A DNA stretch of 64,000 nt from Escherichia coli (GCF_003018255.1 NZ_CP027440.1); one strand, 5' to 3'; shown: positions 236-12,703, numbered from the stretch's first letter. Notes: a model not told the origin generated them from the letters alone. Numbers and translations: made by a program.

Positions 236-311
236 TCCTCTGTAGTTCAGTCGGTAGAACGGCGGACTGTTAATCCGTATGTCACTGGTTCGAGTCCAGT
301 CAGAGGAGCCA
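236..311 (+). tRNA. asnT: tRNA-Asn (anticodon GUU)
   Basis: 76-nt cloverleaf sequence tcctctgtagttcagtcggtagaacggcggactgttaatccg...gagcca with GTT anticodon; four identical copies in the window. Confidence 0.95.
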
Positions 312-398
312 AATTCTAAAAATTCGCTTTTTAGCGCAATGTCACTGACCTTAGTTGAGCATTGCTTTTTAACGGATAGCGGGTTTTTGACATCTTAA

Positions 399-431
399 GC
401 GCCCTCGACCTTTATGGTTGAGGGCGTTTTG
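399..431 (+). terminator. Rho-independent terminator-like hairpin downstream of asnT
   Basis: GC stem gccctcgacc/ggttgagggc followed by a T-run. Confidence 0.5.
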
Positions 432-623
432 CTATGAACGCCATCACCATTTTCCCCTCGATTACAAAACTTGAGTAATTCAGTAGTCTCCCCTCTTGCA
501 ACTCACACCCAAAACTGCTTAACGAAAAGTTATTAATTTTCAATCATATTGCTATCAGGATTTACATTTTTTCGCTGTGCTAGAAAGGGCGCATTTATGT
601 TAGCTCGTTCAGGGAAGGTAAGC

Positions 624-2382
624 ATGGCTACGAAGAAGAGAAGTGGAGAAGAAATAAATGACCAACAAATCTTATGCGGGATGGGTATTAAACTACGCCG
701 CTTAACTGCGGGTATCTGCCTGGTAACTCAACTTGTGTTCCCTATGGCTGCGGCAGCACAAGGTGTGGTAAACGCCGCAACCCAACAACCAGTTCCTGCA
801 CAAATCGCCATTGCAAATGCCAATACGGTGCCCTATACCCTTGGAGCGCTGGAATCGGCCCAAAGCGTTGCCGAACGTTTCGGTATTTCGTTGGCTGAGT
901 TACGCAAACTCAACCAGTTTCGTACGTTTGCTCGAGGTTTTGATAATGTCCGCCAGGGTGATGAACTGGATGTCCCGGCACAAGTTAGTGAAAAAAAATT
1001 AACCCCGCCGCCGGGTAATAGCAGTGACAACCTTGAGCAACAGATAGCCAGTACTTCACAGCAAATCGGGTCTCTGCTCGCCGAAGATATGAACAGCGAG
1101 CAAGCGGCCAATATGGCGCGTGGATGGGCCTCTTCTCAGGCATCTGGCGCAATGACAGACTGGTTAAGCCGCTTCGGTACCGCAAGAATCACGCTGGGCG
1201 TGGATGAAGATTTTAGCCTGAAGAATTCCCAGTTCGATTTTCTCCATCCATGGTATGAAACGCCTGATAATCTCTTTTTCAGCCAGCATACCCTCCACCG
1301 TACTGACGAACGTACGCAGATTAACAACGGCTTGGGTTGGCGTCATTTCACTCCCACATGGATGTCGGGCATCAACTTCTTTTTCGACCACGATCTTAAG
1401 CGCAGAAACGAGCTATGGTGGGGCGCAAACAGTAGATATAACGCTGGTGGCAGGCCCGGCAGACGCCTCGCAGTCCGTCCTTAAAAACAACCGGTCATCA
1501 CTGAAAGGGGACTTTACCGAAAGTGCTGAACTATATCTTGTTTTACACGATCTATCAGGTCATCCGATCAATGTTTCTGAAGGGCTGGAATTTGTGCAAT
1601 CAGGTACCAACGTGTCCTATGTGCAAATCAGCACAATTGATTACACTCAAAATTTATACGGTGAGTATAAAGCCACTGTTACAGGCGGCGGAGAGGGTAT
1701 CGCAACGCTGATCCCCGTGTTGAATGGTGTTCACCAGGCGGGTCTGAGTACCACGATAGAATTCATTAGCGCGGGAACCAGACCAATGAACGGTACAGTA
1801 TCAGTGAATGGTGCAAACCTACCTGCAGCTTCATTCCCTTCGCAGGGATTTACCGGGGCGTATTATCAGTTGAATAATGACAACTTTGCACCAGGAAAAA
1901 CGGCGGCTGATTATGCGTTTTCAAGCACTGCCTCCTGGGTTGATGTTGATACTTCCGGTAAGGTGACATTCAAAAATGTTGGAGATAGAAATGCTGTAAT
2001 AATCACGGCGACCCCAAGATCAGGTGGCGCTATTTACCAAACGCAAGTACGGGTGAAGGGCTGGTGGGTGAATCACGGTAATAACCTCATGCAATTAAGC
2101 CAGGCTGAAAACTACTGCAGCAACCAGGTCGGTAATGGCTACCCCCTTCCCCGCGCGGACCTTTTAAGCAATGGGCACATGCGGCGCGAAATAGGGTCAC
2201 TGTATGGTGAGTGGGGAGATATGGGAAATTACATGAAGGAAGCTGATTTTTATTCAATGGTATATTGGTCTTCTAATTCCGCAGGCGCAGGCCAACAATA
2301 CATTGTATCCCTGGAAACAGGGACGCAAAACACTTATCAAACGTATGAATTTTTTTATGGGGCGTGTTATAAACAGATTTAA
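624..2382 (+). pseudogene. yeeJ: Inverse-autotransporter adhesin YeeJ, internally deleted and frameshifted
   Basis: ORF 549-1484 encodes a LysM plus intimin/invasin-type beta-domain N-terminus; ORF 1255-2382 in another frame encodes Big-domain repeats and the lectin-like C-terminus ending CYKQI. The two frames overlap and the whole locus is about 1.8 kb instead of about 7 kb. Confidence 0.8.
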
Positions 2383-2643
2383 TTTTTCGTTATAATTTCT
2401 TACAGAGTGCTCCATTCGGGGCGCTCTTTTTTACATTCTCTCTACAGAACTTGCCCTTCTCTCACAGAAAATGAATAAATAAAAATGCGATACCGCCAGA
2501 TTCGCGTTCGGTGTGACTATGAGCATTTTCGGTGAGTACTGCTTTGATCCAAAGGCTGGTTTTCTGTGATGATTGACCAGCCTCAGAGCATTGATGACAC
2601 TACCGTTCATAACAGATCGGCACTACTATGCATAAGTACTGCC

Positions 2644-3759
2644 TCATATTCTCAACAAAACACTTTTTAATGCCTTTGCGAATTCATCCAGACTTATATT
2701 GTCAATTTTTTGCCCAACGACGACTGACTCCGAAACATCGGCCATTGCGGGCCATCGCGTTTTGTAATCAGCATAAATTGCAACAACAGGGGTATTATAG
2801 GCACTTGCCATATGTAATATTGAGGTGTCAGGAGTTATTGCAATATAAGCATCTTTTATGATTGCTGCTGAACGTTTAATCGAGGGTGATAAGGATAAAC
2901 GGTAGACATTATTATAACAATCCACTAATGCCCTGGCTTTATCTTCCCCTTTGGGTCCATAAACGATCACTATTGGAATATCTGTTTCACTTTGAATTTT
3001 TGCTATTAGATTTTCTGCAATCGATAATGAAAATGTACGTTCCTGCGAGCTACCGTCTAAATTGAGCGCAATGTAAGATCCTAACGATCGCATTTCCTCG
3101 CGTACCTCATCGAGTACATCATCGCTTAATGGCAATTCATATATTGACCTGACTGCCGGAAAACCCGCCTCACGCATCATAAATGCCCATGTCATGGGTA
3201 CAGGAGCCCGGAGATTCTGATCCATCCGGGACGCGTTCTTACACAAAGGGGAATAGCACTTCATGGTTAAACCGACGACCTAGAAATTCGTTTTTGCTTT
3301 CAACTGACTGATAAATATCATCGTTTTCAGGTTCTTTTTACGCATCGCCTCTATACAAAGATCCGGCGTACCGTATTGCAGTGTTATGTTCTTCGCTAAA
3401 TCTTTTATTTCTTTTAATGTTGCGTGATCCTGCATAGTCATTGTGACTAATGTTAATTTAGTCTGTTCAAGTTTGAGCGCATTAAAGACTTCTAAATTAA
3501 TTGTCGACGTAACAATTAATAGATGCTTAATTTTATGCAATTCAAGCGCCCGAATAACAGGAAAGATAGCCATAGCATCGCCAATCTGATCGGGAATATG
3601 TATGACAATAAAGTCTGTTTTTTCAATATTAAAATTATAAGCTTTATAATCGTAGTAACTAAATGCAATACGTCTCAACAATGATACTAAAAACATAACT
3701 AACCTCGCCTCCCTACTGGTTATAATGCAATGCAGTCTATCAGAATCATCAGGGTGCAA
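2644..3759 (-). pseudogene. yeeL: Putative heptosyltransferase (GT9 family) pseudogene, split into two ORFs
   Basis: Adjacent minus-strand ORFs 3280-3759 and 2644-3264 in different frames together resemble an ADP-heptose:LPS heptosyltransferase-like protein. Confidence 0.65.
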
Positions 3760-11282: not shown

Positions 11283-11383
11283 GGTAAACTCCGGGCAGTT
11301 CAGATATCCCGTTATTGTTAAAGTCTAATGTCCGGCATAACAAATAATAAAAACCCGCATCTTATTCCATCCCGATATAACGC

Positions 11384-12301
11384 TTAGCTCACCAATTGCC
11401 ACTGCCTTTTTTCCATCACTGGAGAACTCATCACTGACATTAACAACTCTTTCACTGCTTGCGCCTGTGGTGATAAGTTCGCTCTGGCGGGTAAATTTAA
11501 TGACAAAGAGAGACTCATGGAAGGTGTGGTAATGCGTGACATCCACCCGTTTACTGCGCCACATAACGAACGCGCGGCCGATTCGGGTAATACTGCAACG
11601 CCCATGCCGCTGGCAATCGCTGCGGTAAGCGTGGCAATAGACTCAATTTCACCAATGACTTTTGCCGTGAGTCGCCGTAGGGAAAAAGCCTCATCAACAC
11701 GAAGTCTAATAGCACTGTAATCACTGGGGAGAAAGAGGTTCATTTGCGCAATAGCATTAACATCAACGCTTTGCCCCGGGCAATCTTGAGTTCCTACCAG
11801 AAAAAGATCTTCTTTCAGTAAAGCCTGACTGGATACACCAGCCACAGGGGAATGCTCATAAATCACCGCCATATCGAGTTGATGATTTATCAGTTTTTCG
11901 TTAAGTACTGCACCGCTATTTTCATGAAGATAGATAACGACCTCAGGGAATTCAGCGCGAACCGCCTGTAATAAGGGCATGGTGATGGATGACGCAGCGG
12001 TTCCTGGCGCAAAGCCAATCGAGACTTGCCCCGATAATGCCTGACCAACGTTATGCACCGCCAGTTGGGCCTGCTCACACTGACGTAAAATGGCCCGCGC
12101 ATGGGTATAGAGAATTTTTCCGGCGTCAGTTGGCGTAACGCCCCGTTTTGTGCGAATCAAAAGTTGTTGATTTAACTCACCTTCCAGTGTGGCAACCTGC
12201 TGACTGAGCGCTGGTTGTGCGATATGCAATACTTCAGCAGCCTGGGTCAGGCTACCAATATCTACAATTTTTACGAAGTATTTCAGGCGTCTGAAGTTCA
12301 T
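11384..12301 (-). CDS. nac: Nitrogen assimilation control protein, LysR family
   Basis: 305 aa from MNFRRLKYFVKIVDIGSLTQAAEVLHIAQPALSQQ; the listed ORF has a 10-codon upstream extension. Confidence 0.9.
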   Translation of the reverse strand: MNFRRLKYFVKIVDIGSLTQAAEVLHIAQPALSQQVATLEGELNQQLLIRTKRGVTPTDAGKILYTHARAILRQCEQAQLAVHNVGQALSGQVSIGFAPGTAASSITMPLLQAVRAEFPEVVIYLHENSGAVLNEKLINHQLDMAVIYEHSPVAGVSSQALLKEDLFLVGTQDCPGQSVDVNAIAQMNLFLPSDYSAIRLRVDEAFSLRRLTAKVIGEIESIATLTAAIASGMGVAVLPESAARSLCGAVNGWMSRITTPSMSLSLSLNLPARANLSPQAQAVKELLMSVMSSPVMEKRQWQLVS

Positions 12302-12580
12302 GTTGCCTCCGGTTTTTAAGAATCGGCCCAAGTGCCGCCATTACTTACAACCAGATTGCAAGATGCTTGCCAGTTTTATTTTGGCGTTGATGTACAAGCT
12401 AAGCAACTGTCAAATAAGAGATTATGATAGGTTCGTCATTGGCTCTTTTTATCAGCTGTCGCGTTCCCCTGCCCTATAAAAGGAGGGTATGCACCACGAT
12501 GGTTCATTACCCAATAAGATTGAAAGCTCACCACTTTGTTGAAATTGACAGCAAACAAACAAAAAAATGCATTTCACCCT

Positions 12581-12609
12581 TTGACATCACCATGCACTGC
12601 CATTAATAT
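12581..12609 (+). promoter_or_regulatory. sigma70 promoter of asnV
   Basis: TTGACA at 12581-12586, 17-bp spacer, TAATAT at 12604-12609, then GCGCC discriminator. Confidence 0.6.
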
Positions 12610-12627
12610 GCGCCCCGTTCACACGAT

Positions 12628-12703
12628 TCCTCTGTAGTTCAGTCGGTAGAACGGCGGACTGTTAATCCGTATGTCACTGGTTCGAGTCCAGTCAGAGGAG
12701 CCA
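12628..12703 (+). tRNA. asnV: tRNA-Asn (GUU)
   Basis: Identical 76-nt tRNA-Asn sequence. Confidence 0.95.

Follow-up and report, generated by a model that had tools for sequence, protein, structure and literature searches.

The asn-tRNA genes of Escherichia coli include integration sites for genomic islands, with the Yersinia High Pathogenicity Island (HPI) found at asnT and the pks/colibactin island at asnW/U/V (PMC8209727). We have analyzed a 64,000-nt stretch of E. coli DNA (GCF_003018255.1, NZ_CP027440.1; one strand, 5' to 3', referred to below as the window) in which four tRNA-Asn genes, asnT, asnW, asnU and asnV, lie between positions 236 and 12,703. The locus is the core E. coli asnT-asnW-asnU-asnV cluster in a K-12-like configuration, and it carries no present-day integrase-bearing island. 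However, we consider it probable that the 3' flank of asnW consists of the eroded remains of an old island, in a cluster that is otherwise K-12-like and island-free.

Like the HPI, pks and type VI secretion system (T6SS) islands at asn tRNAs, the asnW flank has a tRNA-to-integrase spacer followed by a stub of a P4-like integrase gene, in the same position and orientation, and like those islands it is atypical in GC content and absent from related species. Unlike them, this islet has neither a functional integrase nor a 16/17-nt direct repeat, amounts to 1.4 kb with one gene, and is fixed in the species and not polymorphic. A four-tRNA cluster without a contemporary island is a known E. coli arrangement; taken alone, it is a negative observation on a well-known hot spot, matches the reference strain and changes nothing by itself, although it does supply a clean "empty-site" reference for scoring occupancy by HPI, pks and T6SS islands. 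Features of this kind are well known, and the fossil islet is a minor refinement. It matters for the inference of ancestral att sites and island histories, since the "empty" asnW allele would itself be a fossil insertion.

Extra DNA and an integrase vestige at asnW

In the window, asnW (8395-8470, minus strand) is separated from amn by 1,511 bp. The outgroup contigs, which were picked via MtfA homologues, included two genomes in which the corresponding junction is empty: in an Escherichia sp. (L009; 87-92% nucleotide identity to the window) the amn stop codon lies 92 bp after the tRNA-Asn on the yeeO side, and in Citrobacter amalonaticus (L011) amn lies 55 bp from the asnW 3' end. Each of the two junctions is made up of a single hairpin, AAAAGCCCGC-loop-GCGGGCTTTT, common to the convergent tRNA and amn. 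The homologous hairpin of the window, AATAGCCTGC-loop-GCGGGCTGTTT, is located at 6942-6972, directly after amn, and belongs to repeat family D2, as do the hairpins that immediately follow asnU and asnV; we regard it as the surviving ancestral bidirectional terminator. Because the outgroup junctions are empty and this hairpin has been kept beside amn, the segment from ~6973 to 8394 is extra DNA with respect to these outgroups. The fossil islet as a whole (6973-8394, minus strand, as for asnW) is ~1.42 kb long, with a GC content of 0.36 as compared with 0.47 for the window, and it fills precisely the interval from the tRNA 3' end to the ancestral terminator, which is where a tRNA-targeted integrase would put an island. 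The original prediction had treated the 450-bp low-GC stretch after asnW as the unit in question; that stretch proved to be only part of the extra DNA, which also includes yeeN.

When the L009 junction was used as a query, the empty arrangement was found in 0 of 5,426 complete E. coli genomes, and in E. coli the homology with this query resumes 8 nt from the tRNA end. By this criterion, the insertion is fixed in E. coli.

For description of the asnW flank we use tRNA-sense positions, in which position p corresponds to window coordinate 8395-p. The first 158 nt after the tRNA (positions 1-158; 8237-8394, minus strand) match the island-type spacer that separates tRNA from integrase in L009 (E=1.9e-28) and in E. 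coli 2016C-3878 (L021; 8e-21), and in the latter strain the integrase of that spacer stands at the head of an asnT-linked T6SS island. Copies of the spacer also lie after asn tRNAs at two loci of Salmonella (L010 and L012). There was no match with the HPI and pks integrase spacers, and the asnW spacer family is that of the L009/2016C-3878 integrase. A hairpin followed by a T-run at 8333-8304 (minus strand), which was found by terminator scan within this island-type spacer, is the predicted present terminator of asnW.

Directly beyond the spacer, ~70 nt (8167-8236, minus strand) correspond to 2 colinear pieces of the 5' end of the P4-like integrase gene, so that 228 tRNA-proximal nucleotides of the flank are homologous to the spacer plus integrase pieces. 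The first piece, 8236-8202 (positions 159-193), aligns with coding sequence nucleotides 9-43 at 28/35 identity, its translation reading TDITIRKVKNS as compared with TDTAIRKIKPS; the second, 8210-8167 (positions 185-228), aligns with nucleotides 105-149 on the same strand at 78% identity (E=4e-5). The start codon has been lost, ~61 nt between the pieces are deleted, and the remainder of the integrase gene is gone. We observed a local score of 40 for the part beyond the spacer, as compared with 20 +/- 2.3 for shuffled sequences, none of which (0/300) reached that score. The vestige was detected through DNA homology to the outgroup loci, and the claim rests on that homology together with position, strand and colinearity, because the signal at the protein level alone is weak (E ~0.1).

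The original prediction had held that all 4 sites are unoccupied, and had proposed a check of the flanks for repeats of the tRNA 3' end and for integrase fragments. The check yielded an integrase remnant at asnW and no direct repeat, which is one half of what had been named as telling against unoccupied sites. In its strict form, the unoccupied reading would make all 4 sites pristine and the 450-bp asnW stretch an AT-rich ancestral spacer between convergent genes. It is in keeping with this that neither an intact integrase nor a direct repeat is present, and that the yeeN-asnW spacer is of the same length (452 bp) and without an annotated feature in K-12, aligns with ~96% column identity across five strains of E. 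coli, and is common to 92% of genomes. Yet in 2 outgroups amn lies next to asnW, and both yeeN and the spacer are missing; the proximal 228 nt match an island spacer and integrase 5' end; yeeN is 81% identical in DNA sequence to its Lactococcus counterpart; and the ancestral terminator has been displaced to the amn side. The pristine-site reading is thus already contradicted, and we regard it as extremely improbable.

Several candidate features of the islet were rejected. Open reading frames (ORFs) of 100, 83 and 57 aa in the yeeN-asnW spacer gave no Pfam or NCBIfam match, and their frames are broken by 1-2-bp indels between strains. The only match of this flank at a permissive Rfam threshold was manA-II (8299-8428, minus strand; E=0.013), which covers the 3' end of asnW as well as hairpins of the spacer; its score of 34 bits is far below the gathering score of 100, and we take it to be due to chance. 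A possible decayed repeat at the distal junction, picked out by eye, TCTGCCCAAGGAAGCAAA compared with CCAGTCAGAGGAGCCAAA (11/18 matches), was not above chance in a shuffle test.

A related arrangement was seen in Salmonella enterica, which has a second tRNA-Asn ~900 bp after asnT (L010, 10899-10974 and 11869-11944; L012, 16303-16539). Next to this second gene is the island spacer also seen beside E. coli asnW, and after it come ORFs without a Pfam match and fragments of a different integrase family (PF12834/PF12835). As judged from these similarities, the flank could represent a further member of this island family, likewise decayed.

The yeeN module and a proposed history of the islet

The single gene of the islet is yeeN (coding sequence 7226-7942, plus strand), which encodes a YebC_II/YeeN translation factor (NCBIfam PRK12378). 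The product scored 351.7 bits against the NF009044 PRK12378 model, for which the cut-off is 196, over residues 1-236 of 238, and is thus a full-length YebC_II member. YeeN has been reported to ease ribosomes past polyproline stalls, less efficiently than YebC_I (PMC12234827). The gene sits in a module (7070-8007, plus strand) that also has a promoter-like site (7130-7159), a 5' leader common to Lactococcus (7189-7225) and a terminator hairpin (~7952-7985), the terminator region being conserved next to yeeN in L015, L016 and L017, and the module is conserved as a unit across contexts.

We observed that the window DNA from 7189 to 7943 is 81.1% identical to that of Lactococcus kimchii over 755 bp with 0 gaps, including 37 bp before the start codon; the longer segment 7070-7985 is 82.5% identical to L015. 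At the protein level, the closest relatives outside the enterobacteria are those of L. kimchii (89% aa identity), L. termiticola (85%) and Streptococcus (78-79%). When set beside the YebC_II/YeeN factors described earlier (PMC12234827; PMC13284719), the yeeN product thus shows 78-89% identity to the YebC of Streptococcus and Lactococcus, each of which has only one, with the difference that E. coli also has its native YebC_I, beside which YeeN is a xenologous second copy. The neighbours of the gene in L. kimchii are housekeeping genes, and mobile elements are absent there. In Salmonella-like genomes it is not at the amn locus and resides inside large defence islands (type I restriction-modification, BREX, TIR, HipA, AbiJ), and it was seen inside other islands in L016-L020. 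Because of the identity with Lactococcus, the housekeeping setting there and the defence-island setting in Salmonella-like genomes, yeeN, as far as its sequence and neighbourhoods indicate, behaves as island cargo of Lactobacillales origin. The YebC_II/YeeN papers do not discuss a horizontal origin of YeeN, the word "horizontal" occurring 0 times in PMC12234827, and in the searchable literature library we found no paper that linked yeeN and asnW with an integrase remnant or with horizontal origin.

The same comparisons bear on the possibility that polarity is the reverse of what we propose, that is, that yeeN and the spacers are ancestral and were lost in the L009 and C. amalonaticus lineages. 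Salmonella does have YeeN (89-95% aa identity), and the empty junctions sampled number only two. Those junctions are clean, however, with an intact hairpin of the asnU/asnV terminator family, and so precise a loss would be best explained by excision of an integrated element; also, the Salmonella-like yeeN is at a different locus, inside islands, and low GC content together with identity to Lactococcus at the DNA level argues for recent import. We therefore hold this reversal of polarity to be quite improbable.

It is harder to dismiss a history of 2 unrelated events, in which yeeN reached amn by another route, such as illegitimate recombination or as cargo of another element, and a separate island with a P4-like integrase decayed at asnW to spacer and stub. 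The orientation of yeeN, which points away from the stub across 160 nt of AT-rich DNA, would fit such a history, as would the occurrence of the 7070-8007 module alone, without spacer or stub, in L015, L016, L017 and L019; nor was an intact island with both parts found. Yet all of the extra DNA forms one block that reaches from the tRNA 3' end to the ancestral terminator, as predicted for a single tRNA-targeted insertion, and yeeN is itself island cargo in Salmonella-like genomes. On balance, we think 2 separate events unlikely, though less so than a reversal of polarity.

According to the history that we favour, in which a single island was inserted and then eroded, an island with a P4-like tyrosine integrase would have integrated at the asnW 3' end in the E. 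coli stem lineage. A related integrase is intact today by asnT in another Escherichia species (L009) and in some E. coli, in the latter heading a T6SS island. The island would have carried, or would later have received, yeeN captured from a Lactococcus-like low-GC bacterium, and deletions would then have removed the integrase gene, all but ~70 nt of its 5' end, together with the distal repeat and other cargo. What was left over would be a 1.42-kb immobile islet, now fixed in E. coli, made up of the spacer, the integrase vestige, ~160 nt of AT-rich DNA, the inverted yeeN module and ~100 nt of further AT-rich DNA. The hairpin in the spacer presumably took over termination of asnW, and the shared terminator of the original junction would have remained beside amn. 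As would be expected of a degenerate islet, the DNA that is extra with respect to relatives starts at the tRNA 3' end, the remnant of the integration module is in the expected place and orientation, and atypical composition is combined with foreign cargo.

Several observations weigh against this history. The vestige is short, and its protein-level signal is weak, as noted above. At the predicted distal junction there is no direct repeat, the best local match to the tRNA end being no better than that in 53% of shuffles. The empty-junction evidence comes from two outgroup genomes only. Two parts of the islet, ~160 nt (8008-8166) and ~100 nt (6973-7069), are without an assigned origin; the first, an AT-rich stretch between the yeeN terminator and the integrase vestige, showed no homology in any fetched locus, and its ORFs are broken by 1-2-bp indels between strains. 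Finally, we have seen no genome with an intact island of integrase, cargo and yeeN at an asn tRNA, although no search was aimed at that combination; the known relatives of the integrase head other cargo (L009, L021), and what connects the integrase vestige with yeeN is only that they are adjacent, no intact combined island having been found. With these points taken into account, we lean only slightly towards the fuller proposition that YeeN is a xenolog acquired recently from a lactic acid bacterium akin to Lactococcus, which was delivered into asnW by an island with a P4-type integrase, and was domesticated and fixed throughout the species as the integrase of the eroding island dwindled to a 70-nt stub.

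If the fossil-islet reading is true, YeeN of E. coli would be a Gram-positive import and not an old paralogue, which bears on work with YebC and YeeN. Also, the K-12 yeeN-asnW and amn-yeeN "intergenic" regions would be leftover island DNA, and a truly virgin asnW site would exist in no E. coli. The amn/yeeN intergenic region has been listed as a K-12 promoter island (2054637, 373 bp) bound by H-NS (PMC3661553). It corresponds to the AT-rich segment 6884-7225 of the window (GC ~0.29-0.31), and an H-NS-bound promoter island fits xenogeneic DNA. In that earlier report the region is a feature of transcription; here, the amn/yeeN stretch would form the distal portion of an imported block linked to the tRNA.

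With respect to yeeN in Salmonella, it should be noted that hundreds of Salmonella assemblies break inside the gene, giving partial products of 214-221 aa at contig ends, and that in S. enterica contigs L016 and L017 a type I restriction-modification or BREX system lies directly downstream of it. These observations suggest that, in Salmonella, a variable hot spot for defence islands adjoins yeeN. One YeeN homologue (among P0135, P0141 and P0124) is named "Putative Integrase" by its source.

The four tRNA-Asn genes and occupancy of their flanks

ARAGORN found exactly 4 tRNA genes in the window, all of them tRNA-Asn(GUU) with anticodon gtt: asnT (236-311, plus strand), asnW, asnU (10219-10294, plus strand) and asnV (12628-12703, plus strand). 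Every copy scored 72.6 bits against Rfam RF00005, for which the gathering score is 29, and 76 of 76 alignment columns are invariant, in agreement with the prediction that the 4 genes are identical. The names were assigned from gene order and from the RefSeq annotation of near-identical E. coli records and K-12 MG1655, which also give the order mtfA-asnT-yeeJ-yeeL-shiA-amn-yeeN-asnW-yeeO-asnU-cbl-nac-asnV-ldtA-cobTSU. The ORFs around the tRNAs were identified with NCBIfam as shiA, amn, yeeN, yeeO, cbl and nac, and each tRNA has the neighbours expected in E. coli (mtfA|asnT, yeeN|asnW|yeeO, yeeO|asnU|cbl and nac|asnV|ldtA). Full-length megablast matches, at up to 98.6% identity, were found among the 5,426 complete genomes.

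In comparison with K-12 MG1655 (b1977-b1990), gene order, orientations and tRNA positions are the same, as is the 452-bp yeeN-asnW spacer, and both have yeeL as a pseudogene, which in the window is inactivated by a nonsense codon; identity per gene is 96.5-98.4%. The differences are a 6.25-kb out-of-frame deletion in yeeJ of the window and the presence downstream of pocR-pduF-pdu, which K-12 lacks.

Each tRNA gene has a promoter-like TTGACA-N16/17-TAATAT (or TAAGAT) sequence 17-19 nt upstream and a hairpin terminator downstream, and as judged from these motifs each is a single-gene unit with its own sigma-70-type promoter-like site and predicted terminator. The promoter-like sites are at 189-217 for asnT (TTGACA-17-TAATAT, plus strand; whole unit 189-311), 8517-8489 for asnW (minus strand; unit 8395-8517), 10175-10202 for asnU (plus strand; unit 10175-10333) and 12581-12609 for asnV (plus strand; unit 12581-12740). 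The discriminator, which runs from the -10 element to the start of the tRNA, is GC-rich and shared by asnT, asnW and asnV, and likeness among the 4 copies ends ~24 nt upstream and a few nucleotides downstream of the tRNA. The genes lie within inverted repeats (212-318 / 8388-8494 / 10215-10299 / 12604-12707).

The non-coding 3' flanks extend 312 bp from asnT to the yeeJ start (624), 452 bp from asnW to the yeeN stop (7943-8394), 37 bp from asnU to the cbl stop and 55 bp from asnV to the ldtA stop. As predicted, then, the low-GC asnW flank is the longest of the 4, with a GC content of 0.32-0.40 in 7801-8400. The asnU and asnV flanks are of the ancestral type, in which a single terminator hairpin (10303-10333 for asnU, where the cbl stop is at 10332; 12710-12740 for asnV, where the ldtA stop is at 12759; both plus strand) is followed by the next core gene.

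No sign of a present-day island was obtained from searches of the window. With up to 3 mismatches allowed, the 16-mer CCAGTCAGAGGAGCCA and the 23-mer tRNA 3' end were found only in the 4 tRNA genes themselves; the HPI P4-like integrase, used in tblastn against the whole window, gave a best E of 0.67, which is noise; and the ORFs of the 2 longer flanks, those of asnT and asnW, had no Pfam match and no integrase family. The tblastn search would miss the asnW stub, because the stub is of another integrase family and only ~25 codons long.

Occupied sites look different. In E. coli O104:H4, the HPI P4-like integrase lies 161 nt after asnT and is followed by ybtS; in RM9872-C1, the far end of the T6SS island has the 16-nt repeat CCAGTCAGAGGAGCCA and then the normal asnT flank; and in BH100, the integrase of the pks island adjoins the asn tRNA, and the same 16-nt repeat precedes ldtA. 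This picture agrees with that described earlier, in which the HPI of E. coli is itself without a right repeat (PMC8209727).

We used queries of ~610 bp centred on each tRNA 3' end to survey the 5,426 complete E. coli genomes for uninterrupted junctions. The junction was intact at asnT in 2,674 genomes (49%), at asnW in 4,980 (92%), at asnU in 5,180 (95%) and at asnV in 4,666 (86%), the corresponding disrupted fractions being ~51%, 8%, 5% and 14%. These are marginal frequencies, and the frequency of all 4 junctions being intact together is at most 49%, because that is the asnT value. Since uninterrupted junctions are common, the 4-site state of the window is an ordinary, K-12-like one. The features of an active island were not found: the window junctions are the majority or "empty" alleles, with neither an intact tyrosine integrase by a tRNA nor a distal 16-17-nt repeat. 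The claim that the 4 sites are unoccupied therefore holds with regard to an intact integrase, a repeat of the tRNA end or a present-day island of the HPI, pks or T6SS type, but not in the sense that asnW is untouched; asnT, asnU and asnV are in the state counted as "empty" for the species, and asnW is "empty" only by E. coli standards.

The 4.3-kb asnW-asnU-asnV segment is known to invert (PMC8209727). We observed this segment to be inverted in E. coli K-15KW01 (L005) and BH100 (L018), where nac faces yeeN, and to be in the K-12 orientation in the window. Identical, oppositely oriented tRNA-Asn genes serve as substrates for inversion, in agreement with the inversion reported in PMC8209727.

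For positions 1-13000 as a whole, the top identity among the complete genomes was 98.6% over 13 kb. A 611-bp asnV-ldtA piece was 100% identical to DETEC-S792, and the asnW piece reached at most 98.7%. From these values, the 1-13000 region appears to be mosaic or to come from a sparsely sampled lineage.

The asnT side and other features of the window

The non-coding asnT 3' flank (312-623, plus strand) is the canonical "empty" E. coli flank, the one found intact in the 2,674 genomes noted above, and in island-bearing genomes it follows the 16-nt repeat at the far end of the island (L007). It contains a decayed ancestral terminator core, CGCTTTTTAGCG, at ~322-334, as judged by comparison with the Citrobacter hairpin, and a second hairpin at 400-426 that is followed by TTTT. 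When compared with the outgroup loci, segment 312-623 showed no homology, and it matched only another E. coli.

Beyond this flank are 2 pseudogenes. The first, yeeJ (624-2382, plus strand), encoded an inverse autotransporter adhesin and has been cut from ~8 kb intact to 1.76 kb by an out-of-frame internal deletion of 6,248 bp, with 2-bp microhomology at the junction (1397/1398). The same lesion is present in JNEC-KY177, where it is annotated as two pseudogene pieces and where the region aligns end to end with the window. The second, yeeL (2644-3696, minus strand), of glycosyltransferase family 9, has a nonsense mutation at codon 139 (Q to stop in comparison with JNEC-KY177). In Citrobacter, shiA lies 208 bp after a tRNA-Asn without yeeJ-yeeL, and homology of the window to the region upstream of shiA starts at ~3890-3912. 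Since Citrobacter has no such block between tRNA-Asn and shiA, yeeJ-yeeL looks lineage-specific, and the comparison, made with few outgroups, is suggestive of a lineage-specific insertion (~340-3890) 3' of the asn tRNA. The block is located beyond the terminator and does not adjoin the end of the tRNA, and it lacks an integration module. The view that the accessory content of the window lies elsewhere, in pdu and the O-antigen cluster, is thus correct in that both are present in the window, but it leaves out the asnW islet and the apparently lineage-specific yeeJ-yeeL block.

The pdu operon of the window is present in 636 of the 5,426 E. coli genomes, and these 636 have a pdu-positive, cbi-negative layout: the cbi (cobinamide synthesis) operon, which is riboswitch-controlled in Salmonella, is absent here although pdu is present. 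A full-length cobalamin riboswitch (16921-17095, minus strand; 107.5 bits) was found between pocR and cobU (~15587-18102), where it lies upstream of only a 145-aa hypothetical ORF. Matches at the Rfam gathering level were also obtained for 2 enterobacterial small RNAs, STnc230 in the pocR-pduF intergenic region (18162-18245, plus strand) and STnc240 (40986-41060, minus strand). The O-antigen cluster (38001-63000) is O185-like with respect to wzx/wzy, with a JUMPstart element at 62597-62635 (minus strand); coverage of 80% or more of these 25 kb was found in only 6 of the 5,426 complete genomes. A his leader is located at 43356-43479.

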